The notes: generated by a model from the sequence alone, not told the origin. Positions 7,057 through 27,883 are shown, numbered from the stretch's first letter. The stretch is 64,000 nt of DNA from Lapillicoccus sp. (GCF_036559105.1 NZ_DATBTV010000021.1:1689-65688), one strand, 5' to 3'. A program made the numbers and translations.

Positions 7057-9183
7057 TCAGGAGGTGGCGCGGGTCATCTGTCGGAGCTCCTTCTTGAGGT
7101 CGCCGAGCTCGTCCCGGAGCCGCGCGGCCAGCTCGAAGTGCAGGTCGGCCGCGGCCGCGTGCATCTGGGTGGTCAGCTCCTGGATCAGTGAGGCGAGGTC
7201 GGCCGCCGCCATGGACTCCAGCCGTCCACCGCCGGACACGTTGACGTCGACGGCCAGCGCCCCACGACCGCCCCCGCCGGTCTTCGTCGCCCGACCGCGG
7301 GACTGCGAGCGCCCGCTGCCGAGCAGCTGCTCGGTGTCGGCGTCCTCGCGGGCCAGCAGGTCCGTGATGTCGGCGATCTTCTTCCGCAGCGGCTGCGGGT
7401 CGACACCCCGCTCCTTGTTGAACGCGATCTGCTTCTCCCGCCGCCGGGAGGTCTCGTCAAGGGCCTCCCGCATCGACGGGGTGACGTTGTCGGCGTACAT
7501 GTGCACCTGCCCGCTGACGTTGCGGGCGGCGCGACCGATGGTCTGGATGAGCGACCGCGCCGAGCGCAGGAACCCCTCCTTGTCGGCGTCGAGGATGCAC
7601 ACCAGCGACACCTCGGGCAGGTCGAGGCCCTCACGGAGCAGGTTGATGCCGACGAGGACGTCGAACTCGCCGGTCCGCAGCTCCCGCAGCAGCTCCACCC
7701 GGCGCAGGGTGTCGATGTCGGAGTGGAGGTAGCGGACCCGGATCCCCTTGTCGAGCAGGTAGTCGGTGAGGTCCTCGGCCATCTTCTTGGTCAGCGTGGT
7801 GACGAGGATCCGCTCGTTGCGCCCGGTGCGCAGCGTGATCTCGTGGATGAGGTCGTCGATCTGGCCCTTCGTCGGCTTGAGCACGATCTCCGGGTCGACG
7901 AGGCCGGTCGGCCGGATGATCTGCTCCACCGGTGGGCCGGACGTCGCGGCCTTGGCCAGCTCGTAGGGGCCCGGCGTCGCCGACAGGTAGAGGGTCTGGC
8001 CGATCCGGTCGAGGAACTCCTCCCACATCAGCGGGCGGTTGTCCATCGCGCTCGGCAGCCGGAACCCGTGGTCGACGAGCATCCGCTTGCGGGACATGTC
8101 GCCCTCGTACATCGCCCCGATCTGTGGCACGGTCTGGTGCGACTCGTCGATGACCAGCAGGAAGTCGTCCGGGAAGTAGTCGATCAGGCAGTTCGGCGCG
8201 GATCCCGCCGACCGGCCGTCGATGTGCCGCGAGTAGTTCTCGATGCCGCTGCACGACCCGACCTGGCGCATCATCTCGATGTCGTAGGTCGTCCGCATCC
8301 GGAGCCGCTGCGCCTCGAGCAGCTTGCCCTGGCGCTCCAGCTCGGCCAGCCGGTCGGCCAGCTCGATCTCGATGCCCCTGATCGCCCGCTCCATGCGCTC
8401 GGGTCCGGCGACGTAGTGAGTGGCCGGGAAGACGTACATCTCGGTCTCCTCGCGGACCACCTCACCGGTGACCGGGTGGAGCGTGTAGATCCGTTCGACC
8501 TCGTCGCCGAACAGCTCGATCCGGATCGCGAGCTCCTCGTAGACCGGGATGATCTCGACGGTGTCGCCGCGGACCCGGAAGGTGCCGCGGGTGAAGGCCA
8601 GGTCGTTGCGGGTGTACTGCATCTGCACGAACTTGAGCAGCAGCTGGTCGCGGTCCATCTGCTCGCCGACCCGGAGCCGGACCATGCGGTCGACGTACTC
8701 CTGCGGCGTCCCCAGCCCGTAGATGCACGACACCGACGCCACCACGACGACGTCGCGGCGGGTCAGCAGCGAGCTGGTCGCGCTGTGCCGGAGCCGCTCG
8801 ACCTCGTCGTTGATCGACGAGTCCTTCTCGATGTAGGTGTCCGTCTGCGGGATGTAGGCCTCGGGCTGGTAGTAGTCGTAGTAGGAGACGAAGTACTCGA
8901 CCGCGTTGTTGGGCAGCAGCTCGCGGAACTCGTTGGCCAGCTGGGCCGCCAGCGTCTTGTTGGGCGCCATCACCAGCGTCGGCCGCTGGACCTGCTCGAT
9001 GACCCACGCGGTGGTCGCCGACTTGCCGGTGCCGGTCGCGCCGAGCAGCACGACGTCGTCCTCGCCGGCCTTGATCCGCCGGGAGATCTCGTCGATCGCG
9101 GTCGGCTGGTCGCCGCTCGGGGAGAACTCGGAGATCACCTCGAACGGGGCCACCGTCCGCTTGATGTCGGTCGTCGGACGCAT
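7057..9183 (-). CDS. uvrB: excinuclease ABC subunit B
   Basis: Start at ATG 9183 ([16 protein letters not shown]...). Walker A GATGTGKS, helicase motifs, C-terminal UVR domain ([10 protein letters not shown]). Confidence 0.97.
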
Positions 9184-9189
9184 ACGCCA

Positions 9190-9211
9190 ACGGTACGTCC
9201 CGGGTCCGACA
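9190..9211 (-). promoter_or_regulatory. RecA-independent DNA-damage promoter-like motif (RecA-NDp / PafBC type)
   Basis: Minus strand reads TGTCGGAC-N8-TACCGT, fitting tTGTCRgtg-N8-TAnnnT. The -10 ends 6 nt before the uvrB ATG, implying a leaderless or near-leaderless mRNA. Confidence 0.4.
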
Positions 9212-9258
9212 CGACGGCGCCCGACCCTGAACCGGCGGAAGGGTGCGGGCTCCGGTCC

Positions 9259-9278
9259 GCTCGACTGCCAGTCGAGCG
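9259..9278. repeat. 20-nt palindromic repeat, copy 1 (GCTCGACTGCCAGTCGAGCG)
   Basis: Perfect inverted repeat CTCGACTG-C-CAGTCGAG. Identical to the copy at 9310-9329. Confidence 0.7.
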
Positions 9279-9309
9279 ACTCGGCTGGGGTTCTACCGGC
9301 AGCCAAGCG

Positions 9310-9329
9310 GCTCGACTGCCAGTCGAGCG
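9310..9329. repeat. 20-nt palindromic repeat, copy 2 (GCTCGACTGCCAGTCGAGCG)
   Basis: Identical 20-mer, 51 nt from copy 1. Confidence 0.7.
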
Positions 9330-9350
9330 GCACTGCGAGGCGTCGGTGAG

Positions 9351-9419: not shown

Positions 9420-11513
9420 CTACGACGCCCTAGTCATGAGCCACGCCTCCATGTAGGCCCGGCTGTTGCCGTCGTCGACCCACTTCGCGTCGAGGCTCGA
9501 CGCCTCCTTGAGCGCGGCGGCCGCATCCTGCTGGCCGGCCAGACCGGCGTACATGAGGAGGTAGTCGCCGAACTGCTGTCCGTACCCCGCCCCCGCGGTC
9601 GCCTCGGTGACCTGAGCACGGATCCGGTCGGGGTCGCCGGCGAGGTAGGCGGCCGAGCTCGGGCTCGCGGGGAGCACGAGGATGGCCAGCATGGCCGCCG
9701 GCGACGGGGAGAACCACGTGGCGTAGTCGCGCTTGCCACCCCAGGTCAACGAGAAGATCTGGTGCCCGAAGCCCTGGTAGACCGGGTCGCTCTTGTCGAT
9801 GCGCAGCCCGTAGAGCAGCGCGGTCGCCTGCTCCCCGGCCAGCATCCAGGTGGCCTCCGCCTTGAGCGGCTGGTTCTTCGTGGTGTCGGCCCAGATGCTC
9901 AGCCCGGTCCAGGCGGTGACCGCCTCCGAGGTGCTCTCCTGGTTGTTGCCGTCGGCGAACGGCGAGGTGCCGCTGGCCCACGAGTGCGCGTTGTAGGCGT
10001 CGAAGGCCCGGCGGTCGGGGAACAGCCCCTTGGTCCCGGTGCCGGCGATGTCGGCGGCGACGAGGTCCATGACCGGCTGCCACTTGGCCACCAGGGCCGG
10101 GTCGTTGGCGGCGAGCAGGCCCGCCGTGTAGAGGAAGTACCCGTAGTGGAAGTGGTGGTCGTTGTACTCGTCCGAGCCGAACGAGGGGGTGAGCCCGATC
10201 ATGCCCTTGCCCTGCGCGTCGTAGACGAAGCAGAACGCGGGGCGCTTCGCGCAGCCCTGGGGGTCGGTCCACTGGTCGAGCTGGGTGACGAGCTTCGCCT
10301 TGAGCGGCGTCGCGACGTCCTCGAGCCCGAGCTGGGTGGCCAGCTGGTACAGCTGGGCCGACCGGTAGAGGGCCTTGCCGCCGAAGTACGTGTCGGCCGG
10401 GAAGTCCTTGGTCTCGGCCACGTCCTTGCGGACCTGGTCGGCCAGGGTCGCCTTGTCGGCGTTGCTGAGCTTGCCGAGGTCCAGCTGGGTGGTGACGGCC
10501 CGGGTGGGCTCGCTCCACGTCAGCGTGTCGCCGCGGCAGACCGAGAGGGTGCCGTAGGCGCTCGGGAAGGTCCCGAGGTCGCAGGTCGTCCCGCCGGCGA
10601 GGCCGGTCTTCTGGTGCGGCATCGCCACCACGACCCCGTCGCCGCCGCCCTCGTGGGCGTACGTGAGGGTGGTGGTCGCCGAGTCCCCGGAGACCGCATA
10701 CGCCGTCTTGCCGGAGGTGACCGGCGCGACGGACGAGGCCATCGCCGCGGCCGAGCCGCCGTCGGGCACCGCGAACCAGGTCACCCGGCCACCGGCTTGG
10801 ACCGAGACACCCGTGTCGCTGGCGGTGGCCTTGTCGAGCAGGAGGCCGTAGGTGCGCCCGGCGACCGTGACGGTCGGCGGCTCACCCGCGGCGAAGGACA
10901 CGTTCTGGCCGAGGGTGACCGCGTCGGTGGCCGTGAAGGTGACCGAGGGAGACCCCTGGGCCAGCACCGTGTGGCCGAGGGCCTTGCCGCCGCTCCCCCG
11001 CTGCTCGAGGGTGACGGTGAGGTCGTCGTAGGCGGACACGACGGTCGACTGGACGCCCGGCACGGTGACGGTGACGTCGGAGACGGCCCCGCCGATGATC
11101 GCCTTGTCCGACGTGACCACCTTCGGTACGCCGAACCCGAAACCGGTCTTCTGCTCGGTGAAGCTGAGCGGCACCGCGAACACGGGGAGCGCCTCCGGCC
11201 CGAGGGCCAGGCTGGAGAACCACTTGTTCGTCGGCGGGACCAGGCCCTGCGCCAGACGGTCCGCCTGGAGCGGCTTGGGGGTCTGCTGGACGACCTTCGC
11301 GGCGTTGGTCTGGAGGGTGGCGGGGTCGATCACCGCGGTGGCGGCGTCACCGCTGCCCTCGACCTTCGAGCCCGCGCCCGCGGCGTCGCCGCTGCTGCTG
11401 GAGCTGGTGGTGCAGGCGGTCACGGTGGCGAGCGCCGCGACGGTGAGCACGGCGAGGCCCGCGCGCAGCGGCCCGGCCCGGCCCCTGGTCAGGGAGTGGA
11501 GGGTTCGCATCAC
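9420..11513 (-). CDS. glycoside hydrolase family 81 (endo-beta-1,3-glucanase) lipoprotein
   Basis: Signal peptide with lipobox LATVTAC. GH81 motifs PTNKWFSSL, YNDHHFHYGYFLY and DGNNQESTSEAV (catalytic Glu region). The start overlaps the upstream stop (GTGATG). Confidence 0.85.
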   Translation of the reverse strand: MMRTLHSLTRGRAGPLRAGLAVLTVAALATVTACTTSSSSSGDAAGAGSKVEGSGDAATAVIDPATLQTNAAKVVQQTPKPLQADRLAQGLVPPTNKWFSSLALGPEALPVFAVPLSFTEQKTGFGFGVPKVVTSDKAIIGGAVSDVTVTVPGVQSTVVSAYDDLTVTLEQRGSGGKALGHTVLAQGSPSVTFTATDAVTLGQNVSFAAGEPPTVTVAGRTYGLLLDKATASDTGVSVQAGGRVTWFAVPDGGSAAAMASSVAPVTSGKTAYAVSGDSATTTLTYAHEGGGDGVVVAMPHQKTGLAGGTTCDLGTFPSAYGTLSVCRGDTLTWSEPTRAVTTQLDLGKLSNADKATLADQVRKDVAETKDFPADTYFGGKALYRSAQLYQLATQLGLEDVATPLKAKLVTQLDQWTDPQGCAKRPAFCFVYDAQGKGMIGLTPSFGSDEYNDHHFHYGYFLYTAGLLAANDPALVAKWQPVMDLVAADIAGTGTKGLFPDRRAFDAYNAHSWASGTSPFADGNNQESTSEAVTAWTGLSIWADTTKNQPLKAEATWMLAGEQATALLYGLRIDKSDPVYQGFGHQIFSLTWGGKRDYATWFSPSPAAMLAILVLPASPSSAAYLAGDPDRIRAQVTEATAGAGYGQQFGDYLLMYAGLAGQQDAAAALKEASSLDAKWVDDGNSRAYMEAWLMTRAS

Positions 11514-12247
11514 TTGAGTCCGATCTTGATGAGGAACGAGCGCAGCCCGTCGGTCGGGCCGGCCAGCGGGCCGTCGTCGCGCAACGAGAGGGTCGCGGCG
11601 ACCGGCGTACCCGGGTGGGTCAGCTCGGCGATCTTCGGGTCCTTGAGCGAGTCGCTCGCGACGGTCACCCGCGTCTTGGCCTGGCCGTTCTCGGTGGTCA
11701 CCGAGACGGACTGGACCGTGCCCTCGACCGTGCGGTCGTCGGGCAGCCGCAGGCTGACGGCTGCGCCCTTGACGATCCGCTCGTAGTCGCGCGGCGAGAG
11801 GACGAAGTCGGCGAGCGCATACTGCGAGCCGTCCGAGGTGATCGTGGCGAGGTTCGCACCGTTCTGGACGAACCCGCCGGTCTGCGCCTTGACGTCGGAG
11901 AGCCGGCCGTCGCTGAGCGCCTTGTAGGTCACGGTGGACGTCTTGGTGTCCACGTCGAACGCGTCGGTCGAGGTGACCTTGAGGCCCTGCGAGAGGTCCC
12001 GCTGCAGGTCGGGGCTGTTGACGGTGAAGAGGGTCTGGCCCTTCTTCACCTCGTCGCCGTCGCCGGCCTCGGTGTTGGTGACGACGCCGCCGTACGCGGC
12101 GCCGACCGAGGCCTGGGCCGAGACGACCTGGCCGGTGGTGCTGAGGGCCTGGGCCTGGCGCTGGTTGAAGACCAGCGTGAGGACGGCGGTGAGAGCGAGC
12201 ACGGCGACGATGCCGCCGAAGAGTCGAAGTCGTTGGGTCCAGGTCAT
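11510..12247 (-). CDS. HlyD-like / membrane-fusion (barrel-sandwich) protein with N-terminal TM anchor
   Basis: 245 aa. TM segment FGGIVAVLALTAVLTLVF. Lipoyl-like hairpin GGVVTNTEAGDGDEVKKGQTLFTVNS and beta-barrel-like C-terminus. ATGA overlap with the GT2 gene. Confidence 0.6.
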   Translation of the reverse strand: MTWTQRLRLFGGIVAVLALTAVLTLVFNQRQAQALSTTGQVVSAQASVGAAYGGVVTNTEAGDGDEVKKGQTLFTVNSPDLQRDLSQGLKVTSTDAFDVDTKTSTVTYKALSDGRLSDVKAQTGGFVQNGANLATITSDGSQYALADFVLSPRDYERIVKGAAVSLRLPDDRTVEGTVQSVSVTTENGQAKTRVTVASDSLKDPKIAELTHPGTPVAATLSLRDDGPLAGPTDGLRSFLIKIGLK

Positions 12248-13995
12248 GACGAGACCTCCTGGGTCGCAGTGGATCCGGCCATCACGAGGTCGTCACGCGT
12301 GAGCACCGCGACAGGGCTGTCGGCGGGGCGCGCGATGACCGTACGCAGGGCTGGCTCGGGAGTCGGTTCGGTGACAGGCTCCGCGGCGGGGCGACGTCGC
12401 CGGGCCAGCTCGCGGAACGCAGCGCCGATGAAGGCGCCGAGGATGATCGTGTTGGTGATGTTCCAGATGGTCGCCAGCGTCAGCTGGCTGTGGTTGATGT
12501 CGCGCCAGATCGCCACGAACGAGGTCGGCAGCAGGAACGTGAACATCAGGACCTGCGGGACCATGAAGGCGAACGGCGAGGCCACCCGGTGATTTCCACC
12601 CGTGACGTGCCACTTGGTGTCCTTGCCGGTGATGACGTTGAACAGCGCCCGCGTGTAGATCGGGAACGACACCGTGGACAGCAGTAGGCACTCCCAGCGG
12701 AACGACCCGAGCGTGAAGAACGCCAGGACGATCTGCATGACGTAGAAGCCGGCGTAGTAGAGCAGCCAGGTGCCCAGGCCGAGGTCCATGGTCACGGGCC
12801 GGAGGTCGAAGTAGATCTCCAGCGGCGGGACGAGCAGGAGCAGCAGCGGTGCGATGCCGGCGAGGTAGTGCGTGGCCGTGACCAGGTACATGATCCGCTG
12901 GTCGGGCGTGAGCCGGCGGCGCGGGCTGAGCGGGTTGTGGGTCATGAGGATCTCGAACCCGCCGGTCGCCCAGCGCTGCTGCTGCTTGGTGAAGCCCTCG
13001 ATGGTGTCCGGGGCGTCGCCCACGGCCAGCTCGTCGGGGATGTAGACACTGCGCCAGCCCCGCTCGTGGAGCAGCAGCGAAGTCCACACGTCCTCGGACT
13101 TGCTGGCGGTGTACATGCCGCCGATGTCGTCGACGGCCTGGCGGCGGAAGACCACGTTGGTGCCGACGCAGAACGCGGCGTTGAAGTGGTTCCGGCCGGG
13201 CTGGATGAACCGGTAGAAGACGGTCTGCATGTAGCCGGCGCCGCGGGCGATGACGGTGTGGAGGTTGCCGTACACCTGCGGCGTCTGGACGAACGCGACG
13301 TCCTCGCTGACGAAGAACGGCAGCGTCTCGAGGAGGAAGTCCTCCTTGGGGACGAAGTCGGCGTCGAGGATCGCGAAGTACTCGCCCTTGGCGATGGACA
13401 GCGCGTGGTTGATGTTGCCGGCCTTGGCGCCGTTGTTGGACAGGCGGCGCACGTAGTGGCAACCCAGCTCGGCCGCGAGGTCCCTGACCCCGTCGGACTT
13501 GCCGTCGTCGAGGATCCAGGTCCGGTGCTTGCCGGTCATGGCTCGCGCGGCCGTGGCGGTCCGGCGGATGGTGTCGACCGGCTCGCCGTAGACGGTGATG
13601 AAGACGTCGACCAGGGTGTCGTTCCCGTTGAGGCGGAACGGCCACTGGGTGGCGTCCTTGCCGTTACGGGCAATGAACTTCGGGTCGAACAGAGCGTCAC
13701 GCGCCGCGTAGTACGCGTAGTCACGTGGGCTGGATGCGCCCGAGAGGATCGTCCACATCGCCAGGAGGGCCTGGACGATGAGGAGGCTCTCGGCGACGAT
13801 GACCATCGAGTACGGCAGCCAGTCGCCGCGGTTCGCGGGGTTGAGGAGAAAGCTCGAGTAGAGGAGAACGCCGAGCGCAGCGATGACCGTCAGGAGGATC
13901 ATGACCGGGCTGTAGTCCGTCGAGACACGCGCTCGACGATCGGTCAGGACCTGGGCATCGCCGCCGGCGAGGTCGTGGGAAGGGTCGAATGACAC
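12244..13995 (-). CDS. processive family-2 glycosyltransferase (cellulose/curdlan synthase-like)
   Basis: DDGKSD, ILDADF, VQTPQ, SEDVWTS and QQQRWATGG (D,D,D,QxxRW), flanked by multiple TM helices. The start is taken as GTG 13995 (VSFDPSHD). The track ORF extends to 14148, so the start is uncertain. Confidence 0.85.
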   Translation of the reverse strand: MSFDPSHDLAGGDAQVLTDRRARVSTDYSPVMILLTVIAALGVLLYSSFLLNPANRGDWLPYSMVIVAESLLIVQALLAMWTILSGASSPRDYAYYAARDALFDPKFIARNGKDATQWPFRLNGNDTLVDVFITVYGEPVDTIRRTATAARAMTGKHRTWILDDGKSDGVRDLAAELGCHYVRRLSNNGAKAGNINHALSIAKGEYFAILDADFVPKEDFLLETLPFFVSEDVAFVQTPQVYGNLHTVIARGAGYMQTVFYRFIQPGRNHFNAAFCVGTNVVFRRQAVDDIGGMYTASKSEDVWTSLLLHERGWRSVYIPDELAVGDAPDTIEGFTKQQQRWATGGFEILMTHNPLSPRRRLTPDQRIMYLVTATHYLAGIAPLLLLLVPPLEIYFDLRPVTMDLGLGTWLLYYAGFYVMQIVLAFFTLGSFRWECLLLSTVSFPIYTRALFNVITGKDTKWHVTGGNHRVASPFAFMVPQVLMFTFLLPTSFVAIWRDINHSQLTLATIWNITNTIILGAFIGAAFRELARRRRPAAEPVTEPTPEPALRTVIARPADSPVAVLTRDDLVMAGSTATQEVSS

Positions 13996-14146
13996 AATGG
14001 CACCCCCGTGCCGTGAAACAGAGTGGGGTCCACCGAGTCCCGTTGGCGGGGCTGCGGCGAAATGACAGCGGCCCCATTGCCTGCGGGAGAGGGTTGAGGA
14101 CCTCGACCCCGCGTGCTTCGAGAGTAGAGGGACGCGGGATGGATGC

Positions 14147-14162
14147 ATGACAACGTTGACAT
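14147..14162. promoter_or_regulatory. near-palindrome ATGACAACGTTGACAT upstream of the glucan synthase operon
   Basis: 14 of 16 positions symmetric around CAACGTTG, in a locally AT-richer stretch. Contains TTGACA. Confidence 0.3.
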
Positions 14163-14225
14163 CTGCGTGCTCAGCGCGTGGTTCAGATCACACCGATGAG
14201 GTATGGCGTTCCACGCTGTGGACGG

Positions 14226-15434
14226 TTACCGAGCGGTAGAGCCGAGCTGGTCCGTCCACCCCGTCCGCCCGACCCAGCCCTCGACCCGCGGGTACGCGTC
14301 GGCGAACCACGGTTCCTTGGCCTCCGTGTACTCGTCGGCGCTGGGAGCGCCGGCCGCGAGGGCCTTCTTCAGCGAGGCGTACTGCTGCCGGGCCTCGGGG
14401 TCGGCACGGAGCCAGTCGCGGAACTGCAGCGCGAAAACCCAGCCAGGAGAACCGAGCTCGCGAACGTGGACGTTCGCGACCCGACACGGGTCCATGGAGC
14501 CGTAGAAGCGCTTGCGCCACCGGCTCGGGTCATCGCCGCGCGGTAGGGGTGAGTCCTCCGTGATCGCCGGCACGTGGACGAAGCCGCGCTGGGTGAGCTG
14601 GGCCACGAACGCCGGGGTGTCGGCGTCGGTCAGCCTCCGGACGCCGACCTGAAGGTCGATGGCGTCCTTGGCCGGCAGGTCGGGCACACTGGTCGACCCG
14701 ATGTGCTCCACCCGAACCGCCCGGTCGCCGAGGGCGTCGGCGACGCGTGCAGCGAGGCGTGCGGCCTGCGCGGGCCACGCGGGGTCCGGTTCGACCACGA
14801 CCCCTCGCTGGAGCCGGCTGCGCTTCCCCGCCAGCAGGTTCGCGTTGAAGGGCAGCAGTCGGCGGGCCCAGAGGTCGCCGACCTGCCGTTGGGTCGCCTC
14901 GAGGGTGCCGTCGTTGTCGACCCACACGTCGGCGGCGGCCCGGCGCTGCTCGTCGGTGGCCTGTCGGGCGATCCGGTGGCGCGCGTCCGTCTCGTCCAGC
15001 CCGCGGTCGACCAGCCGCCGCACGCGGGTCTCGGTGTCCGCGCCCACGACGACGCTGAGGTGCTCGTGGGGCCAGAGGCGGCGTTCGACGAGGAGGGGCA
15101 TGTCGTAGACCGAGACCGCCTGGACGTCCAAGGCGGTCCGCAGCTCGCGCACCCGGGCCGTGATGGCCGGCCCGGTGATCCGGTCGAGATCGGCCAGGGC
15201 GGCCGGGTCCGGGAAGACGATGGCCGCGAGCGCCGCACGGTCGAGGGACCCGTCCGGACGGATGAGGTGCGCCCCGAACCGCTCGGCCACGGCGGCCAGG
15301 GTCGGCCGCCCGGGTTCGACGACCTCGCGAGCCACGACGTCGGCGTCGATGACCTGGGCGCCGAGTTCCCGCAGGGCGGCGGCCACCGTGGACTTACCCG
15401 ACCCGATCCCCCCGGTGAGACCGACGTCGAGCAT
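14226..15434 (-). CDS. coaE: dephospho-CoA kinase fused to a GrpB/UPF0157 domain
   Basis: N-terminal GLTGGIGSGKST. C-terminal VEHIGSTSVPDLPAKDAIDL (GrpB). This fusion is typical of actinobacterial CoaE. Confidence 0.9.
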   Translation of the reverse strand: MLDVGLTGGIGSGKSTVAAALRELGAQVIDADVVAREVVEPGRPTLAAVAERFGAHLIRPDGSLDRAALAAIVFPDPAALADLDRITGPAITARVRELRTALDVQAVSVYDMPLLVERRLWPHEHLSVVVGADTETRVRRLVDRGLDETDARHRIARQATDEQRRAAADVWVDNDGTLEATQRQVGDLWARRLLPFNANLLAGKRSRLQRGVVVEPDPAWPAQAARLAARVADALGDRAVRVEHIGSTSVPDLPAKDAIDLQVGVRRLTDADTPAFVAQLTQRGFVHVPAITEDSPLPRGDDPSRWRKRFYGSMDPCRVANVHVRELGSPGWVFALQFRDWLRADPEARQQYASLKKALAAGAPSADEYTEAKEPWFADAYPRVEGWVGRTGWTDQLGSTAR

Positions 15435-15569: not shown

Positions 15570-16673
<1,104 letters not shown>

Positions 16674-16676
16674 GGG

Positions 16677-17993
16677 CTAGAGCTTGGCCTTGATCTGGCT
16701 GTCGATGACCTGCTGCGTCTCGCTGTTGAGGCCGGCGAACGTCTGCGCGACGTCGGCGCCCTGCGCGACCTGGTCGAGGGCCTTGCCGATGCGGGCGCCG
16801 CCACCGGGCACGAACACCCGCGCGTAGTCCTGCGAGCGGGTCTTCGGCAGCTGGTCCACCGCGGTCTTCGCGTTGGGGTTCTTCGCGAGGAAGTCCTTCT
16901 CCGACTGGTTGTCCAGCGCGGACTTCCGGACCGGCATGTACCCGGTCGCCTGGGTGAAGATCACCGTGTTGTCCGCGTTGGTGAGGAACTCCATGAACTT
17001 CAGCGCGTTCTTCTTCCGCTCGTCCGAGATCCCCGCCGGGATCGCCACGCCGGCGCCGCCGGTCGGGCAGTTGCCGTCACCGGGCAGGAACGCCGTCCCC
17101 ACCGAGAACTTGGCCGCCTTGGTGATGCCGCCGAGCGACCCGGTCGACTGGACGATGCACGTCGCGAGGCCGGCGCCGAAGTCGGCCTCCGGCGTCTTGT
17201 TGAACTTGACGTAGCCGGCCTTGGCGAAGTCCTGCAGGAACTGGCCCGCCGCGACGGTCTTCGGGTCGGTGAACGTCGGGGTCCACTCCTTCGAGTAGGC
17301 GCCCCCGAAGTCCCACGCCATGTTCTGGAAGTACCAGTCGAGGTAGTTCGAGCCGTCGGGCATCTCGAAGACCGACTTGTCCGCCCCGGCCGCGGCCTTG
17401 AGCTTCGGCGCCCACTCCTGCAGCTCCTGCCAGGTCTTGGGCCCGCGGTCCTCGAGGCCGGCGGCCTTCCAGAGGTCCTTGTTGTAGTAGAAGAGCGGCG
17501 TCGACCGCGCATACGGCAGGGCGTAGTGCTGGTCCTTGAACTTGTAGTCGTTGTAGAGCGAGTCGACGTAGTCGTCGGTCTTCACGCCGGCCGCCGAGAG
17601 CAGGTCGTCGAGCGGTGCGAACTGCTTGTTGAGCGCGAAGTTGAACCACGTGACGTCCGAGGCGACCACGATGTCGGGCAGGGTCCCACCGGCCAGGGCC
17701 GCGTTGAACTTCTGCGCGACCTCCTCGTAGTTCTTGCCCGCGTCGGTCAGCTTGACGGTGATTCCCGGGTTCGCCGACTGGAAGGCGGTGATGATCTTCT
17801 GCTCGACCTCCTTGGACGTGCCCGGGTGGTTGCTCCAGAAGTCGATGGTGTTCGCGCTGCCGCCACCGCCGCTCTCTTGTGGCGTGCCGGGGCTGCCGGT
17901 GCCGGCACAGGCGGCGAGACCGGCGAGGGCGGCGGCGCCACCGGCTACTCCGAGGAATCCCCGTCGTGAGATCTGGCGGGAGAGGTCGTTCAT
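16677..17993 (-). CDS. ugpB: ABC transporter substrate-binding lipoprotein (UgpB-like)
   Basis: Tat-like leader RRGFLGVAGGAAALAGLAAC. YARSTPLFYYNK, CPTGGAGVAIPA and TGYMPVRKSA resemble mycobacterial UgpB (from memory). Confidence 0.75.
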   Translation of the reverse strand: MNDLSRQISRRGFLGVAGGAAALAGLAACAGTGSPGTPQESGGGGSANTIDFWSNHPGTSKEVEQKIITAFQSANPGITVKLTDAGKNYEEVAQKFNAALAGGTLPDIVVASDVTWFNFALNKQFAPLDDLLSAAGVKTDDYVDSLYNDYKFKDQHYALPYARSTPLFYYNKDLWKAAGLEDRGPKTWQELQEWAPKLKAAAGADKSVFEMPDGSNYLDWYFQNMAWDFGGAYSKEWTPTFTDPKTVAAGQFLQDFAKAGYVKFNKTPEADFGAGLATCIVQSTGSLGGITKAAKFSVGTAFLPGDGNCPTGGAGVAIPAGISDERKKNALKFMEFLTNADNTVIFTQATGYMPVRKSALDNQSEKDFLAKNPNAKTAVDQLPKTRSQDYARVFVPGGGARIGKALDQVAQGADVAQTFAGLNSETQQVIDSQIKAKL

Positions 17994-18023
17994 GGGTATG
18001 CCTTTCGTCTGCGGGTAAGCGGG

Positions 18024-18851
18024 TCAGCTCTTCACAGCGCCGGCCGTGAGGCCCTTGATCATCTGGCGTTGGAGGAAGAGGAACAGGACGAGGATCGGCA
18101 GCATCGCGAGGATGGTGCCGGCCATGACGGGACCCCAGTTGGTGAGGCCCTCGTTGTTCTGGAGCAGGGTGAGCCCGACCGGGAGCGGAGCGACCCGCTC
18201 GTCGTCGGCCATGAGGAAGGGCCAGAGGTACTCGTTCCACTCAATGACGACGGTGATGAGCGAGAACGCCACGAGCGTCGGCCAGGACATCGGCATGACG
18301 ATCCGCCAGAGCAGCTTCATCGGGCCCGTGCCGTCGAGCCGGGCCGCCTCGATGATCTCGCCGGGCAGCGACAGGAACTGGTTGCGCATGAGGAACGTCC
18401 CGAAGGCCACGCCGGCCAGCGGGATGATGATGCCCTGGTAGGTGTTCTTCCAGCCCAGCTGGCTGACCAGGGCGTAGTTCGAGATGACGGTGATCTGGTT
18501 CGGGACCATCAGGGCCGCGATGACGACGAAGAAGACGATGGTGCGCCCGGGGAACCGCAGCAGCGCCAACGCATACGCGCTGAGCACGCCGAGCACGATC
18601 TTCGCCGTCGCCGTGGCGACGGTGATGATCACCGAGTTGCGCAGGTAGCTCCAGAACGCGATCCGCGTCGTGACGTCGACGTAGTTCTCCTTGGTGGCCG
18701 GGTCCGGCCACCACTGCGCCGGCCGGACGTAGATGTCCTGGCGCTCCTTGAACGAGGTGATGAGGATCCAGAACAGCGGCACCGCGATGACGAGGGACAC
18801 GAGGACCATGGCCACATAGCCGGCGGCGGTCCACCCCCTGCCGCGGTTCAC
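18024..18851 (-). CDS. ugpE: carbohydrate ABC transporter permease
   Basis: Start at GTG 18851, overlapping the upstream stop (GTGA). EAA loop IEAARLDGTGPMKLLWRIVMP. Confidence 0.8.
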   Translation of the reverse strand: MNRGRGWTAAGYVAMVLVSLVIAVPLFWILITSFKERQDIYVRPAQWWPDPATKENYVDVTTRIAFWSYLRNSVIITVATATAKIVLGVLSAYALALLRFPGRTIVFFVVIAALMVPNQITVISNYALVSQLGWKNTYQGIIIPLAGVAFGTFLMRNQFLSLPGEIIEAARLDGTGPMKLLWRIVMPMSWPTLVAFSLITVVIEWNEYLWPFLMADDERVAPLPVGLTLLQNNEGLTNWGPVMAGTILAMLPILVLFLFLQRQMIKGLTAGAVKS

Positions 18852-19717
18852 GAGGTGTTCCGATCCATGAAGCGGACCTGGACCACGGTGACGACGAGCA
18901 GGACGAGGAACATGATCGTGGCGACCGTCGCGCCGTAGCCGGCCCGGAGGTTGACGAAGGTCTCCTGGTAGACCTGGTAGACGAGGGTGGTCGTGCCGTT
19001 GCCGACGGGCCCGCCCCGCGTCATCACATTGATGATGTCGAAGACCTGGACCGAGCTGAGCAGCACGGTGATCGACAGGAAGAACGTCGTGGGCCGCAGT
19101 TGCGGGAGCAGGACCCGGGTGAACTTCCGCCACGACGATGCGCCGTCGATCTCGGCGGCCTCGTCGAGGTCGGTCCTGCGGCCCTGGAGGGCGGCGAGGT
19201 AGATGACGAACGAGTACCCGAGGTTCTTCCAGATGTAGGTCACGGTCACCATGAACAGCGCCCAGTGCTGGTTCTGGTAGAAGTCCGGGGACGCGACGCC
19301 GATCCGCGCGAGCAGGTCGCGCACCAGCCCGAAGCTGGGGTCGAAGACGAACTGGAACGCCACGCCGACCGCCGCCCCAGAGATGACGAACGGTGCGAAC
19401 ACCGCGGAGCGGACGAGGTTCCGACCGCGGAGACGCTGGTCCAGCAGCATGGCGAGGGCCAGGCCGACGCCCATCGAGATGACGACGGTGGCGACGGTGA
19501 AGATCACCGTGTTGAGGACGATGGTCCGGGTGTCCTCGCGGGTGAACCACTCGGTGTAGTTCGCGAAGCCGATGTAGTTGGCGATCGGGGCCGAGATGTT
19601 CCAGTCGGTGAACGACAGCCGGATGTTGTCGAGCAGCGGCCGGTAGGTGAAGAGGATGAGCAGGGCGAGGTTCGGCAGCAGCAGCACCGCGGCGAGGAGC
19701 CACTCGCGCCGGCCCAC
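18848..19717 (-). CDS. ugpA: carbohydrate ABC transporter permease
   Basis: MalF/UgpA-like (LLPNLALLILFTYRPLLDNIRLSFTDW; EAAEIDGASSWRKFTRVLLPQL). The start is provisionally GTG 19717; upstream GTGs near 19810 are possible. Confidence 0.75.
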   Translation of the reverse strand: MGRREWLLAAVLLLPNLALLILFTYRPLLDNIRLSFTDWNISAPIANYIGFANYTEWFTREDTRTIVLNTVIFTVATVVISMGVGLALAMLLDQRLRGRNLVRSAVFAPFVISGAAVGVAFQFVFDPSFGLVRDLLARIGVASPDFYQNQHWALFMVTVTYIWKNLGYSFVIYLAALQGRRTDLDEAAEIDGASSWRKFTRVLLPQLRPTTFFLSITVLLSSVQVFDIINVMTRGGPVGNGTTTLVYQVYQETFVNLRAGYGATVATIMFLVLLVVTVVQVRFMDRNTS

Positions 19718-20074
19718 CCCGGACCGCTTCGGGGGTGGCCCGACCGGCTCGGGCGGACCGACCCGGACCGCCGTGTCGCGCGTCGCGGTCGTCAACGGCC
19801 TCGCCACCACGACACGGCCGGAGACGTTTCCGTCGCCCGGTGAACGGTGCGCAGCCCAACCATGAACCCTCCACGAGACGGCGATGTCGGTCGCGGCGGC
19901 CACGTCTGTCGAGATGTGACCGCTCGTCACTAAGTCACGACAATTGCCCCCGCGGCGCACACCATAGCCTCCGACGCGCGGGACTGCATCCGGGCAGCGG
20001 CCTCCGACCGAATCCAGGTCACCGGTGCACTCCACCGACGGGGTGCGCATCCCGGTTCCCCCGAAGGAGACACC

Positions 20075-20392
20075 ATGCGTATGCGCACACCGCTCGGAGC
20101 GTCCGCCGCTCTCGCCCTGGGCCTCGGCCTGACCCTGGTCCCCGCCGCCTCCGCCGGTGCCGCACCCGACACGAGGTGCATGCGGGCCGGCATCGCCTTC
20201 CTCAAGGACAACGGGCTGTTCTCGACGGTGGCCAAGGACGGTCTGCCGATCGCCACCGCGGTCGCGGTCGGCGTCACCCCGCGCGCCGGCACTGACGTCG
20301 CGTCCCTGCCCGACCCGCTGCCGCTCAGCGTCGTGCTCGCCGACCACCGTGCCGGCGAGAGCAGCCTGTTCGTCTACCCCTGGTGCGGCTGA
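20075..20392 (+). CDS. small secreted hypothetical protein
   Basis: GAAGGAGA RBS 6 nt before the ATG. Signal peptide ...LVPAASAGAAP. 105 aa with two Cys (one at the penultimate position, PWCG). Confidence 0.5.
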   Translation: MRMRTPLGASAALALGLGLTLVPAASAGAAPDTRCMRAGIAFLKDNGLFSTVAKDGLPIATAVAVGVTPRAGTDVASLPDPLPLSVVLADHRAGESSLFVYPWCG

Positions 20393-20569: not shown

Positions 20570-22075
20570 TCAGTTGCCGGTCAGCTTCTCCCGCAGGGCG
20601 GCGAGCGCCTCGTCCGAGGCCAGCGTGCCCTCGGCCGCCGACGGACGGGGCGCGGCCACGTCGTCGGACCCGTCCGAGCTGCTGCTCGAGCCGCTGGAGG
20701 ACGAGTACGACGTCGGCATCTCGCCGCCGCCGGACGCGGCCTCGGCATCGGCCTTGGAGGCCGCCTCGACCTGCGCCTTGTGCGACTCCCAGCGGGCGTG
20801 CGCCTCGGCGTACTGCTTCTCCCACTTCTCGCGCTGCGTCTCGAAGCCGGGGAGCCACTCGTTCGTCTCCGGGTCGAAGCCCTCGGGGTACTTGTAGTTG
20901 CCCTGCTCGTCGTACTCCGCGGCCATGCCGTAGAGCGTCGGGTCGAACTCGGCGACCGGCGCGCTCTCGTCGTTGGCCTGCTTCAGCGACAGCGAGATGC
21001 GACGACGCTCCAGGTCGATGTCGATGACCTTGACGAAGATGTCGTCGCCGACCGTCACGACCTGCTCCGGCAGCTCCACGTGGCGCTCGGCCAGCTCGGA
21101 GATGTGGACCAGGCCCTCGATGCCGTCGTCCACGCGGACGAAGGCACCGAACGGGACCAGCTTGGTGACCTTGCCCGGCACGACCTGACCGATCGCGTGG
21201 GTCCGGGCGAAGTGCTGCCAGGGGTCCTCCTGCGTCGCCTTGAGCGACAGGGAGACCCGCTCGCGGTCCATGTCGACGTCGAGAACCTCGACGGTGACCT
21301 CCTGGCCCACCTCGACGACCTCGGACGGGTGGTCGATGTGCTTCCAGGACAGCTCGGACACGTGGACGAGACCGTCGACGCCGCCGAGGTCGACGAACGC
21401 GCCGAAGTTGACGATCGAGCTGACGACACCGGTGCGGACCTGACCCTTCTGCAGCTCCTTGAGGAACGTGGTGCGCACCTCGGACTGGGTCTGCTCGAGC
21501 CACGCCCGGCGGGACAGGACGACGTTGTTGCGGTTCTTGTCCAGCTCGATGATCTTGGCCTCGATCTCCTTGCCCACGTAGGGCTGGAGGTCGCGGACGC
21601 GACGCATCTCGACGAGCGAGGCGGGCAGGAAGCCGCGGAGACCGATGTCGAGGATGAGCCCACCCTTGACGACCTCGATGACGGTGCCGGTGACGACGCC
21701 GTCCTCTTCCTTGATCTTCTCGATCGTGCCCCAGGCGCGCTCGTACTGAGCCCGCTTCTTGGACAGGATCAGCCGGCCCTCCTTGTCCTCCTTCTGGAGA
21801 ACGAGGGCCTCGACCTCGTCGCCGACCTTGACCACGTCGGCCGGGTCGACGTCGTGCTTGATGGACAGCTCACGCGAGGGGATGACGCCCTCGGTCTTGT
21901 AGCCGATGTCGAGCAGGACCTCGTCCCGGTCGACCTTGACGATGCGACCTTCGACGATGTCGCCGTCGTTGAAATCCTTGATCGTCGCGTCGATCGCGGC
22001 GAGCAGGTCTTCCTCAGATCCGATGTCGTTGATCGCGACCTGAGGGGCGGCCTTGGTGGCCGTGCTGGCAGTCAT
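20570..22075 (-). CDS. rpsA: 30S ribosomal protein S1
   Basis: Start at ATG 22075 (MTASTATKAAPQVAINDIGSEEDLL). Four S1 repeats and an acidic C-terminus. Confidence 0.95.
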   Translation of the reverse strand: MTASTATKAAPQVAINDIGSEEDLLAAIDATIKDFNDGDIVEGRIVKVDRDEVLLDIGYKTEGVIPSRELSIKHDVDPADVVKVGDEVEALVLQKEDKEGRLILSKKRAQYERAWGTIEKIKEEDGVVTGTVIEVVKGGLILDIGLRGFLPASLVEMRRVRDLQPYVGKEIEAKIIELDKNRNNVVLSRRAWLEQTQSEVRTTFLKELQKGQVRTGVVSSIVNFGAFVDLGGVDGLVHVSELSWKHIDHPSEVVEVGQEVTVEVLDVDMDRERVSLSLKATQEDPWQHFARTHAIGQVVPGKVTKLVPFGAFVRVDDGIEGLVHISELAERHVELPEQVVTVGDDIFVKVIDIDLERRRISLSLKQANDESAPVAEFDPTLYGMAAEYDEQGNYKYPEGFDPETNEWLPGFETQREKWEKQYAEAHARWESHKAQVEAASKADAEAASGGGEMPTSYSSSSGSSSSSDGSDDVAAPRPSAAEGTLASDEALAALREKLTGN

Positions 22076-22257
22076 GTAGGAGGAACTCCGATGGTGGACA
22101 GTGAGTTGATGGTGGAAGATGCCGTGAGTGGTACCGGCGCCGACCGGGTGCCCGCCCAACGGCGGGCATGCGTGGTCGACGCACACACGTGTGCCTGCGT
22201 ATCTTACCGGCGCTGTCTGCAGCCGGTCAAAGCACGTCCGCCCGCCACACTGGGCGC

Positions 22258-25174: not shown

Positions 25175-27883
25175 TCAGTGCGCGGCGTCGTGCCAGGACC
25201 GGCCCACCCCGACGCTGACGTCCAGCGGGACGTCCATCACGGCAGCGTGGCCCATCTCGTGGCGGACCAGCTTCTCGACGTCGTCCCGCTCACCCGGGGC
25301 GATCTCCAGGACCAGCTCGTCGTGGACCTGGAGCAGCATCCGGGACTGCGCGCCGGCGTCGGTGAGGGCGCGGTCGACGCCGAGCATGGCGACCTTCATG
25401 ATGTCGGCGGCCGAACCCTGGATCGGCGCGTTGAGGGCCATCCGCTCGGCCATCTCGCGACGCTGCCGGTTGTCGCTCAGCAGGTCGGGCAGGTAGCGGC
25501 GTCGGCCGAGCATGGTCGCGGTGTAGCCGTTGCCCCGGGCCTCCGCGACCAGCTCGCGAAGGTAGTCGCGCACTCCGCCGAACCGGTCGAAGTACATGTC
25601 CATCAGCCCGGCCGCCTCGCTCGTCGAGATCGTCAGCTGCTTCGACAGTCCGAACGCGCTGAGCCCGTAGGCCAGGCCGTAGGACATGGCCTTGATCTTG
25701 CTGCGCTGCGCCGCCGTGACCTCGTCGACCCCGACGTTGAACACCTTCGACCCCACGAAGCTGTGCAGGTCCTCCCCCGACCGGAACGCCTCGATGAGCG
25801 CCTCGTCACCCGACAGGTGGGCCATGACCCGCATCTCGATCTGGCTGTAGTCCACCGACATCAGCGACTCGAAGCCGTCGCCGACGATGAACATCTCGCG
25901 GATCCGGCGGCCCTCCTCGGTGCGGATCGGGACGTTCTGCAGGTTCGGGTCGGTGGAGCTGAGCCGCCCGGTGGCGGCGATGGTCTGGATGTAGGTCGTG
26001 TGGACCCGCTGGTCCTCGGCGACCGACTTGAGCAGCCCCTCGACCGTGACTCGCAGGCGCGCGGCGTCGCGGAACGCGAGCACCGAGGCGAGGAACGGGT
26101 TGTCGACCTTGCGGCCCAGCTCGTTGAGCGCGTCGGCGTCGGTGGTGTAACCGGTCTTGGTGCGCTTGGTCTTCGGGAGGTTGAGCCGGCCGAAGAGCAC
26201 CTCCTGGAGCTGCTTGGGGCTGCCGAGGTTGATGCTCCGGTCGTCGATGGCCTCCCAGGCGTCCTCCTGGGCCTCGCGAACCTGCGCGTCGAAGTCGCTC
26301 TCCAACGACTCGAGGGCCGGAACGTCGACGGCGATGCCGGAGCGCTCCATGCCGGCGAGCACGCCCACGAGCGGGAGCTCGACGTCGCGCAGCAGTCCGG
26401 AGCCACCGGTGCGGTCGAGCTCCACGTCGAGGGCGTCGGCCAGCTCGAGGACCGCGCTGGCGATGACCATCGCCTCGCCCGCCTCGGCGTCCTGGTCGCC
26501 GTCGAAGTCCAACATCCCCTGGCCGCCCGGAGCGGTGTCGTTCTTCAGCTCGCGGTGCAGCATCCGCAGGGACAGGTCGGCGAGGTCGAAGACCCGCTGG
26601 TCGGGCTTGACGAGGTAGGCGGCGAGCGCCGTGTCGCTGGTCAGGCCGACGAGATCCCAGCCGCGGGCGGCCAGGGCGTGGGACGGACCCTTGGCGTCGT
26701 GCAGCGCCTTGGGCCGGCTGGGATCGGCGAGCCAGTCGGCCACGGCCTGCTCGGCCTTCTCGTCGAGGCTCGTGACGTCGAGGTATGCGGCGCGCCCGGC
26801 GGTCGCGACGGCAAGCGCGCGGATGTCACCAGTGCCGCGGGCCCACTGCCCGACGACGTTGACGCCGGTGCGCTCCCCCGCCTTGACGTGCTCGTCGAGC
26901 CAGGCCGGCACCTCAGCCGACGACAGGACGTCGCCGTCGACGTCGAAGCCGGACTCCGCCTCGGCGGTGACCGCGTCGAGGGTCTGGAACAGCCGCTCGC
27001 GCAGCACCCGGAACTCGAGGCTGTCGAACACCTCGTGCACCTGCTCGCGGTCCCAGGTCTGGCGCTCCAGCTCGTCGACGCTCACGTCGAGCTGCACGTC
27101 GCGGACCAGCTGGTTGAGCCGTCGGTTGCGGAGCACGCCGTCGAGGTGCTCGCGCAGGGCGTCGCCGACCTTGCCGCCGATCTGGTCGATGCTGGCGACG
27201 ATTCCCGGCAGGTCGCCGTAGGTGGTGATCCACTTGGCCGCGGTCTTGGGCCCCACGCCGGGCACTCCGGGGAGGTTGTCGGACGACTCACCCACCAGCG
27301 CCGCGAGGTCGCTGTAGCGCTCCGGCGGCACCAGGTAGCGCTCCGTGACCGCGGCCGGGTCCATCCGCCACACGTCGGAGACGCCGCGGACGGGGTAGAC
27401 CATCGTCACGTCGTCGCTGACCAGCTGGAACACGTCGCGGTCGCCGGAGACGATGACGACCTCCATGCCCTGCGCGGTCGCCTGCGTCGTGAGGGTGGCG
27501 ATGATGTCGTCGGCCTCGTAGCCGGGCGCCTCGATGTAGCGGATCTTCAGGGCGTCGAGCACCTCGTGGACCAACGGGATCTGGCCGGAGAACTCGGTCG
27601 GGGTGGCGCTGCGGCCGGCCTTGTACTCCGCATACTCCTCGAGCCGGAAGGTCTGCCGGGACAGGTCGAAGGCGACCCCGATGTGGGTCGGCTCCTCGTC
27701 ACGGAGCATGTTGATGAGCATCGACGTGAACCCGTAGACGGCGTTGGTGTTCTGGCCGGTCTTGGTCGAGAAGTTCTCGGCCGGCAGGGCGTAGAACGCG
27801 CGGTATGCCAGCGAGTGGCCGTCGAGGAGCAGGAGCCGGTTCGCAGGTGCCACGACGTTCACCCTAGGCCCCGGCACCGACAC
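25175..27883 (-). CDS. polA: DNA polymerase I
   Basis: 5'-nuclease N-terminus LLLLDGHSLAYRAFYAL. Pol motif A DYSQIEMRVMAH and motif C QVHDELVLE. The start is uncertain among GTG 27883/27862/27853. Confidence 0.95.
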   Translation of the reverse strand: MSVPGPRVNVVAPANRLLLLDGHSLAYRAFYALPAENFSTKTGQNTNAVYGFTSMLINMLRDEEPTHIGVAFDLSRQTFRLEEYAEYKAGRSATPTEFSGQIPLVHEVLDALKIRYIEAPGYEADDIIATLTTQATAQGMEVVIVSGDRDVFQLVSDDVTMVYPVRGVSDVWRMDPAAVTERYLVPPERYSDLAALVGESSDNLPGVPGVGPKTAAKWITTYGDLPGIVASIDQIGGKVGDALREHLDGVLRNRRLNQLVRDVQLDVSVDELERQTWDREQVHEVFDSLEFRVLRERLFQTLDAVTAEAESGFDVDGDVLSSAEVPAWLDEHVKAGERTGVNVVGQWARGTGDIRALAVATAGRAAYLDVTSLDEKAEQAVADWLADPSRPKALHDAKGPSHALAARGWDLVGLTSDTALAAYLVKPDQRVFDLADLSLRMLHRELKNDTAPGGQGMLDFDGDQDAEAGEAMVIASAVLELADALDVELDRTGGSGLLRDVELPLVGVLAGMERSGIAVDVPALESLESDFDAQVREAQEDAWEAIDDRSINLGSPKQLQEVLFGRLNLPKTKRTKTGYTTDADALNELGRKVDNPFLASVLAFRDAARLRVTVEGLLKSVAEDQRVHTTYIQTIAATGRLSSTDPNLQNVPIRTEEGRRIREMFIVGDGFESLMSVDYSQIEMRVMAHLSGDEALIEAFRSGEDLHSFVGSKVFNVGVDEVTAAQRSKIKAMSYGLAYGLSAFGLSKQLTISTSEAAGLMDMYFDRFGGVRDYLRELVAEARGNGYTATMLGRRRYLPDLLSDNRQRREMAERMALNAPIQGSAADIMKVAMLGVDRALTDAGAQSRMLLQVHDELVLEIAPGERDDVEKLVRHEMGHAAVMDVPLDVSVGVGRSWHDAAH

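Follow-up and report, generated by a model that had tools for sequence, protein, structure and literature searches.

The 64,000 nucleotide (nt) stretch of Lapillicoccus sp. DNA studied here, hereafter termed the window (GCF_036559105.1, NZ_DATBTV010000021.1:1689-65688), contains three consecutive genes on the minus strand that encode a processive family 2 glycosyltransferase (GT2), a small membrane-fusion adaptor and a glycoside hydrolase family 81 (GH81) lipoprotein, and which together form a candidate operon for the production of an extracellular beta-glucan. This trio was originally proposed from inspection of the sequence alone, and the open reading frames (ORFs) described at that point are present at 12244-14148, 11510-12247 and 9420-11513. 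After revision of the first start codon, the features of the locus are as follows:

12244-13995, minus strand: GT2 synthase, 583 amino acids (aa) from GTG 13995, the mechanical ORF extending to ATG 14148 (Pfam, starts of homologues)
11510-12247, minus strand: membrane-fusion adaptor, 245 aa (Pfam, AlphaFold2 model, Foldseek)
9420-11513, minus strand: GH81 lipoprotein, 697 aa (Pfam, alignment to 6fop, catalytic motifs)
13996-14225, minus strand: presumed operon promoter and leader, 230 nt, from coaE to the GT2 start (upstream alignment of nine loci)

The translational coupling claimed for these genes is evident from the overlaps between them. At 12247-12244 the minus strand carries ATGA (TCATGACC), such that the ATG of the adaptor overlaps the stop codon of the synthase, while GTGATG at 11513-11508 (AAGTGATGCG) causes the GH81 start, be it GTG or ATG, to overlap the stop codon of the adaptor. 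In this respect the trio has the properties of a single, translationally coupled unit. All the motifs quoted in the sequence-only reading can likewise be found in the translations: DDGKSD, ILDADF, VQTPQ, SEDVWTS and QQQRWATGG in the synthase, and PTNKWFSSL, YNDHHFHYGYFLY, DGNNQESTSEAV and the lipobox LATVTAC in the lipoprotein.

To study the distribution of the trio, two motifs of the adaptor were used to scan 185,579 species genomes, which identified at least 119 carriers, this count being a lower bound. The 80 best of these 119 carriers, together with two further loci (L001 and L002), make up the set of 82 loci referred to throughout, in which the trio genes were located by tblastn. In every locus retaining all three genes (80/80), GT2, adaptor and GH81 are colinear and on one strand, and this arrangement is therefore not a matter of chance; the two loci without a GT2 match are both cut by the end of a contig. 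The identities of the three proteins to their counterparts in the window co-vary across loci (Spearman 0.66-0.89). No fourth conserved gene emerged from clustering of the flanking ORFs (±6 kb), as the next commonest family occurs in just 21 loci and is lineage-specific. The named carriers all belong to the Actinomycetota, namely Lapillicoccus, Ornithinibacter, Microlunatus, Friedmanniella, Cryobacterium, Curtobacterium, Microbacterium, Marisediminicola, Lacisediminihabitans, Frigoribacterium and Demequina, alongside metagenome-assembled genomes (MAGs) of uncultured Actinomycetota, some of them Intrasporangiaceae-like. In the close relative L001 the trio has the same coaE and uvrB context, and in Friedmanniella endophytica it lies at another site. 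The trio is a real module, strictly conserved in actinobacteria belonging to several families.

Three distant relatives of the adaptor (profile E values of 1e-22 to 1e-28) are again flanked by GT2 and GH81 genes. These trios (L091, L092 and L093) come from a Joint Genome Institute (JGI) metagenome and the assemblies GCA_040384005.1 and GCA_034680565.1, the contigs having GC contents of 56, 54 and 48 %, and the cassette thus reaches lineages well outside the high-GC carriers. Some variation in copy number and integrity is also apparent. One MAG holds two trios (L020 and L021). Directly after its trio, Demequina iriomotensis (L088 1-7726) encodes another synthase, of 899 aa, and another adaptor, with no second GH81 gene; this additional synthase has a C-terminal extension of approximately 400 residues, and no Pfam match beyond the GT2 domain was found in it. 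On another MAG contig (L090 1113-10254) the synthase, adaptor and GH81 genes are fragmented, representing either a decaying cassette or frameshift errors in long reads.

The first gene of the trio encodes a GT2 enzyme, as had been claimed, matching the Pfam families Glyco_trans_2_3 (1.4e-25), Glycos_transf_2 (6.6e-22) and Cellulose_synt (5.8e-12). As its homologues are approximately 583 aa in length and begin MSFDP or MTFDP, the true start is most likely GTG 13995 rather than ATG 14148, which therefore leaves a 230 nt leader after coaE. The closest solved relative is BcsA (4hg6 and 4p00; phmmer E values of 3-5e-46), with the match spanning both the glycosyltransferase (GT) domain and the C-terminal transmembrane (TM) region, as far as residue 590 of the ORF, through TM5-8. 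When the synthase is aligned with BcsA, BgsA and a CrdS-like protein, the motifs DDG, DAD, SED and QQQRW form invariant columns, and they are conserved in 80 of the 82 loci. Hydropathy indicates two N-terminal and approximately four C-terminal TM segments. The AlphaFold2 model has a mean predicted local distance difference test score (pLDDT) of 63, being confident in the GT domain and falling below 50 in places in the TM part, and was used for a coarse fold match only; with this low-confidence model, Foldseek ranked BcsA first (7e-24), followed by hyaluronan synthases and plant CesA. No PilZ domain was detected by Pfam, and the protein stops about 55 residues past its last TM segment.

The second gene product was described in the sequence-only reading as a TM-anchored protein of barrel-sandwich type lacking a long coiled coil, a description with which both the structural model (pLDDT 83.6) and Foldseek agree. 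The corresponding Pfam assignments are HlyD_3 (6.3e-14, 53.1 bits against a cutoff of 22.2) and HlyD_D23 (2.3e-10, 40.6 bits against a cutoff of 30), with the NCBIfam model RND_mfp giving 58 bits, under its cutoff. The model combines a barrel-sandwich with a beta-barrel domain, and has a TM helix at residues 3-30 and a short helix at the C-terminus; at the site of the alpha-hairpin there is a single helix of eight residues (79-86) between the two halves of the barrel-sandwich, too little to count as a hairpin. Foldseek returned ZneB, EmrA, MexA, AcrA and MacA (E value 2e-10), as well as CusB and BesA, with the lowest root-mean-square deviation, approximately 4 Å, being to the hairpin-less BesA. 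The family is uniform and of limited size, comprising 302 matches among 5.8 billion proteins, nearly all of approximately 245 aa; clustering at 50 % gives 99 representatives with E<1e-30 and 271 with E<1e-10, most of which are 235-248 aa long. Members carry precomputed Pfam BSH_YknX matches, and are named 'multidrug resistance efflux pump' or 'HlyD family efflux transporter periplasmic adaptor subunit' in the databases. The only membrane protein always adjoining the adaptor is the GT2 synthase. The best conserved parts are the TM and juxtamembrane FNQR motif and the C-terminal LRDDGPLAG tail, both at the membrane-proximal ends, which suggests that the adaptor contacts a membrane partner rather than a distal channel. 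The loss of the hairpin that would dock TolC makes sense given that the carrier families are non-mycolate actinobacteria, which we take to lack an outer membrane.

The GH81 assignment of the 697 aa protein, on which the original proposal depended, is supported by the Pfam model Glyco_hydro81C (6.3e-50, 170.8 bits against a cutoff of 25.6), with the model for the N domain alone falling below its cutoff (19.2 against 25.6). Rather than failing GH81 models, the protein aligns over residues 88-693 to the GH81 structure 6fop, Lam81A of C. thermocellum, at 1e-52, and BH0236 of B. halodurans also aligns (approximately 1e-41). The catalytic residues D452 (in NDHH) and E526 and E530 (in NNQESTSE) are present, and the motifs NDHH and NNQESxSE are conserved in 78-81 of the 82 loci. 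The predicted lipobox is also in place, the signal peptide ending ...LAVLTVAALATVTAC with VTAC at Cys34, and is followed by a Ser/Gly-rich linker and then the N and C domains of GH81, while Pfam detected no carbohydrate-binding module (CBM). Inspection of sequence context reveals a lipobox-like Cys in most orthologues. In an Ornithinibacter-like clade (L015-L026, L030 and L072), where the adaptor is of 248 aa, the GH81 protein lacks this Cys and instead has a hydrophobic N-terminal TM anchor, …GLVAVIVIPVLVVAAG…. By either means the enzyme is predicted to be tethered to the cell in every clade. This tethering and the absence of a CBM would fit an enzyme acting on the polymer that its own cell is making, in the manner of BcsZ and XcsC. 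The substrates hydrolysed by characterised GH81 enzymes include laminarin, curdlan, pachyman and yeast glucan, with no or minor activity on barley glucan, pustulan and carboxymethylcellulose (CMC) (PMC9609564).

The sequence-only reading held that the Agrobacterium curdlan system, crdASC, uses different partners from the trio. This does not stand, because the first gene of the crdASC-type cluster on pAtA6 (L086 2255-7188; proteins of 484, 655 and 426 aa) encodes a HlyD-family protein, annotated 'HlyD family secretion protein' and matching HlyD_3 at 24.3 bits (cutoff 22.2). Over its first ~490 nt this gene has a mean column identity of 84 % to a published crdA fragment, with a near-identical ribosome-binding site (supplement, PMC10819609). 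Curdlan is abolished by transposon insertions in crdA, although these may have had a polar effect on crdS, and the functions of CrdA and CrdC are stated to be unknown (PMC10819609). The crdASC system thus resembles the trio in having a processive GT2 beside a HlyD-family protein, in the identity of the AFCVGT and SED motifs of its CrdS-like protein to those of the trio synthases, and in its beta-1,3-glucan product, which is also that predicted for the trio. By contrast, CrdA is of approximately 485 aa, with a predicted long helical region where the trio adaptor has a short helix; the host is Gram-negative, and the adaptor gene precedes that of the synthase rather than lying downstream of it; the third gene encodes CrdC, which has no Pfam domain, whereas the trio has GH81 in that place and no CrdC homologue; and CrdS has approximately 120 extra C-terminal residues, with an identity of just 35 % to the trio synthase over the GT domain.

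The bgsBA operon of Sinorhizobium meliloti, on pSymB (L084), likewise pairs a GT2, BgsA (36 % identity over 281 aa), with a HlyD_3/HlyD_D23 adaptor, BgsB (412 aa), encoded directly upstream. Transposon insertions in bgsB abolish mixed-linkage glucan, and TolC has been proposed as the third component (PMC13438883). In contrast to the trio, this two-gene operon has no linked glycanase gene; BgsB is approximately 170 residues longer than the trio adaptor and is proposed to dock TolC; and BgsA binds cyclic di-GMP (c-di-GMP) at its C-terminus, has the motifs SFCCGS and TED, and makes a (1,3;1,4)-beta-glucan. Orthology of the trio adaptor with BgsB or CrdA was considered and rejected, as BLASTP, tblastn against the plasmids and hhalign yielded nothing beyond insignificant or very short matches, with just the superfamily being shared; the adaptor is approximately 170-240 residues shorter than either because the hairpin is missing. 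A further HlyD and GT2 pair lies on pAtC58 (L085 2756-5926), beside genes for a cache-domain protein and a histidine kinase. Hence a HlyD-family gene adjoins each of the CrdS-like, BgsA and pAtC58 GT2 genes.

Other systems share parts of the design. In the cellulose system BcsA-BcsB-BcsZ, the synthase needs an extracytoplasmic partner with a TM anchor, and the operon encodes a dedicated endoglucanase (BcsZ), which belongs to GH8; it differs from the trio in that the fold of BcsB is unrelated to that of membrane-fusion proteins, a PilZ domain and the motifs FFCGS and TED are present in BcsA, and there is an outer membrane protein, BcsC. Streptomyces CslA-GlxA-CslZ combines an actinobacterial GT2 cellulose synthase-like enzyme with a dedicated glucanase to make a surface glycan, except that the partner GlxA is a copper radical oxidase, the glucanase belongs to GH6 and the product is of the beta-1,4 type. 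BesA of Borrelia and the YknX family of B. subtilis are, like the trio adaptor, hairpin-less or Gram-positive, but serve resistance-nodulation-division (RND) or ATP-binding cassette (ABC) efflux pumps. The cyanobacterial XcsA-XcsB-XcsC operons encode a synthase, a HlyD-like protein as well as an endoglucanase, and are associated with TolC (PMC12430437). They match the trio in having a processive GT2, a HlyD-like adaptor and a glycanase for the product in one operon, differing in their cellulose product, the PilZ domain on the synthase, the proposal that the adaptor bridges to TolC, and the presence of a beta-1,4-endoglucanase instead of GH81. The comparison with CrdA, BgsB and Xcs therefore implies that a membrane-fusion protein beside a CrdS-, BgsA- or BcsA-like synthase is a recurring design.

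With regard to the product, two short motifs differ between synthases. In an alignment with BcsA from two species, BgsA, a pAtC58 GT2 and one CrdS-like protein, the acceptor-site and (S/T)ED motifs are AFCVGT and SED in both the trio synthases and the CrdS-like protein of pAtA6 (L086), as opposed to AFFCGS and TED in BcsA and SFCCGS and TED in BgsA. AFCVGT and SED are found in 76-80 of the 82 loci, and are kept in the low-GC relatives at 44-52 % identity. By analogy with other synthase operons, the GH81 partner makes a beta-1,3-glucan product plausible. This prediction is reasonable because GH81 enzymes are essentially specific for beta-1,3 linkages, to which the motifs shared with the CrdS-like protein add some weight.

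Taken together, these data suggest that the trio is one operon for the self-contained, synthase-dependent production of a beta-glucan outside the cell, the most likely polymer being a linear beta-1,3-glucan that forms a curdlan-type capsule, slime or wall-associated material; we would put the probability of this reading at about 0.6. From the identity of the components we infer a physical complex, UDP-glucose as the sugar donor, a beta-1,3 linkage and a glucanase role for GH81. The GT2 would polymerise glucose from UDP-glucose in its cytoplasmic GT domain and thread the growing chain through its own TM channel, as BcsA does. The adaptor may assemble or oligomerise on the outer face of the synthase, around the exit, acting as an obligatory co-subunit or as a conduit through the wall zone in a manner comparable to CrdA, BgsB, XcsB or BcsB; it would lack the alpha-hairpin since there is no TolC-like channel for it to dock. 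Tethered beside the exit, GH81 would cut the polymer, thereby releasing it, setting chain length or clearing stalled chains, much as BcsZ, XcsC and CslZ act on polymers of their own systems.

The same architecture might instead make another polymer, such as a mixed-linkage (1,3;1,4) glucan like that of BgsA, a branched beta-1,3/1,6-glucan or cellulose, with GH81 cutting only the beta-1,3 bonds or having drifted in specificity. The synthase has its highest identity to the mixed-linkage enzyme BgsA (36 %, 181 bits) and its highest score to BcsA (191 bits, 33 %), relative to 35 % and 163 bits for the CrdS-like protein; databases call its homologues 'cellulose synthase (UDP-forming)', and some GH81 enzymes have minor activity on barley beta-glucan. 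However, AFCVGT and SED match the CrdS-like protein rather than BgsA or BcsA, characterised GH81 enzymes need beta-1,3 runs and barely touch mixed-linkage glucan or CMC, and the known cellulose systems are paired with beta-1,4-glucanases, these being BcsZ, of GH8, and XcsC. Neither NCBIfam model for UDP-forming cellulose synthases reaches its cutoff, with TIGR03030 (CelA) giving 244 bits against 699 and PRK11498 giving 187 against 992. A different polymer seems unlikely. A structural or developmental wall component, similar to the CslA-GlxA-CslZ glycan at Streptomyces hyphal tips, which GH81 would remodel during growth, division or a resting stage, would account for the enzyme being membrane-tethered without a CBM instead of secreted, and for the chromosomal position of the cassette among housekeeping genes in the window, while the adaptor could serve to keep the nascent chain in the wall zone. 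The sequence does not separate a wall from a capsule, but the patchy, accessory distribution of the trio, in at least 119 of 185,579 genomes and in varied contexts, argues against an essential wall function, and makes this explanation quite improbable.

GH81 could alternatively be a foraging or antifungal enzyme directed at exogenous beta-1,3-glucan, such as fungal walls or laminarin, that is merely co-transcribed with an unrelated synthase and adaptor. The GH81 enzymes of T. fusca, C. thermocellum, Paenibacillus and B. halodurans are described as degradative, and the window has genes for a sugar ABC transporter 1.4 kb upstream of the trio. Such an independent role is very hard to reconcile with the strict linkage to the synthase and adaptor, through overlapping codons, in every locus examined and across deep divergence; furthermore, the enzyme is cell-tethered and has none of the CBMs typical of foraging GH81s. 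A functional link between the neighbouring transporter and the trio was also rejected, as the two are not conserved together, and the Friedmanniella trio has beside it a solute-binding protein with just 24 % identity to that in the window.

Several observations nevertheless weigh against the trio being a beta-1,3-glucan operon of the kind proposed. Confidence in the synthase model is low for its TM part. Global similarity was discarded as a guide to linkage, since BcsA, BgsA and the CrdS-like protein are all equally distant from the synthase, and the argument from AFCVGT and SED draws on a single CrdS-like sequence. Beyond membership of the same Pfam families, no similarity of the adaptor to CrdA or BgsB was detectable. 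The gating-loop motif FxVTxK is WHVTGG in the aligned synthase, and neither a linked regulator, nor a c-di-GMP domain, nor a gene for UDP-glucose supply was found at the loci; given this gating loop and the lack of a c-di-GMP-binding C-terminus, regulation must therefore differ from that of BcsA and BgsA. Finally, neither the best 80 of the 119 carriers in the genome scan nor a search seeded with a Demequina adaptor included a member of the adaptor family from Cellulomonas, a Gram-positive producer of a curdlan-type glucan to which genes have not been assigned (PMC3544764). According to the literature, each cellulomonad has two CrdS-like GT2s and two GH81s, the neighbours of which were described in no paper found.

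The sequence-only reading knew of no described synthase, adaptor and GH81 trio. The general design is not new: synthase-dependent secretion of a beta-glucan with a membrane-fusion partner and a dedicated glycanase is known already from the cyanobacterial synthase, HlyD-like protein and endoglucanase operons (PMC12430437), and CrdA and BgsB provide further adaptors. The GH81 version is undescribed in the literature searched, with a full-text search for GH81, glycosyltransferase and HlyD finding no paper, and actinobacterial searches, one for CrdS and one for GH81 together with cellulose synthase, finding no such system. An actinobacterial, GH81-containing, hairpin-less trio thus appears to be undescribed, the new aspects being the actinobacterial setting, in families presumed to have no outer membrane, the miniature adaptor, the choice of GH81 as partner and the lack of a c-di-GMP module. 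We would go further only tentatively, and at somewhat less than even odds, in proposing that this is a distinct secretion system of bacteria lacking an outer membrane, with no outer membrane channel and with a hairpin-less adaptor turned into an extracytoplasmic subunit that the synthase requires, that it is the genetic basis of a Gram-positive curdlan-type glucan, and that AFCVGT and SED mark beta-1,3 as opposed to beta-1,4 synthesis.

The trio provides a concrete three-gene candidate locus for Gram-positive beta-1,3-glucans, and is directly testable because it occurs in Microlunatus, Demequina, Cryobacterium, Curtobacterium and Microbacterium strains that are in culture, such carriers including Microlunatus ginsengisoli JCM 16929, M. 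aurantiacus JCM 16548, Demequina phytophila NBRC 109391 and Curtobacterium sp. Leaf261. Were the proposal correct, pairing with a membrane-fusion protein would be general for CrdS- and BgsA-like synthases, persisting where, as we presume for these families, there is no outer membrane, and the adaptor would be seen as a co-subunit or conduit instead of a bridge to TolC. Should AFCVGT and SED track beta-1,3 linkage, they would aid the annotation of many 'cellulose synthase' genes. The carrier genera are known from soil and activated sludge, and many carriers are MAGs labelled as uncultured Actinomycetota, such that the polymer could matter for the formation of flocs and aggregates in these environments. 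A compact three-gene curdlan module might also be useful for production.

The leader of the operon was studied by aligning the upstream regions of nine related loci. A hairpin, GGCACGGGGGTGCC, at 13999-14012 on the minus strand is restricted to the clade of the window (11 loci), being exact in ten and having a one-base insertion in L012. Its loop of five G residues lies 3 nt ahead of the start codon and is likely to be the ribosome-binding site, a function that we infer. Further upstream, a near-palindrome, ATGTCAACGTTGTCAT, at 14147-14162 on the same strand is kept in six of nine close relatives. Consensus scans found neither a sigma-70-like promoter nor a terminator, and there was no Rfam match in the leader or intergenic regions at E<=1. 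As the conserved leader also exhibits almost no covariation in the alignment of related loci, a riboswitch or known RNA in these regions was rejected.

In the window, the trio is preceded by polA, rpsA, a sugar ABC transporter and coaE-GrpB, and followed by uvrB; the features upstream of it are as follows:

25175-27883: polA
20570-22186: rpsA
15570-20347: sugar ABC transporter (MalK-like ATPase, family 1 solute-binding protein and permease), between rpsA and coaE
14226-15434: coaE-GrpB

M. tuberculosis has the order polA-rpsA-coaE-Rv1632c-uvrB; the row is thus a conserved one, into which the trio and the ABC transporter represent two separate insertions. This upholds the original view of the trio as an accessory insert between uvrB and coaE, as it lies within the row here and at another site in Friedmanniella. 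Its GC content (0.665-0.74) is not anomalous relative to that of the whole window (0.71).

Downstream of the trio, the uvrB ORF (7057-9333, 758 aa) is over-extended at its N-terminus, as the conserved start MRPTTD lies at approximately 9183, giving a protein of approximately 708 aa, relative to 706 aa for UvrB of L001. The 236 nt gap between the GH81 stop codon and this likely uvrB start contains two copies of a 21 nt palindrome, CGCTCGACTG-n-CAGTCGAGCG, at 9258-9278 and 9308-9331, which has no other occurrence in the window and is present as one copy at the equivalent place in L007. Its TCGA half-sites are spaced by 7 nt, a spacing that differs from that of the actinobacterial LexA box. These palindromes could represent an operator of uvrB or a T-less terminator of the trio.

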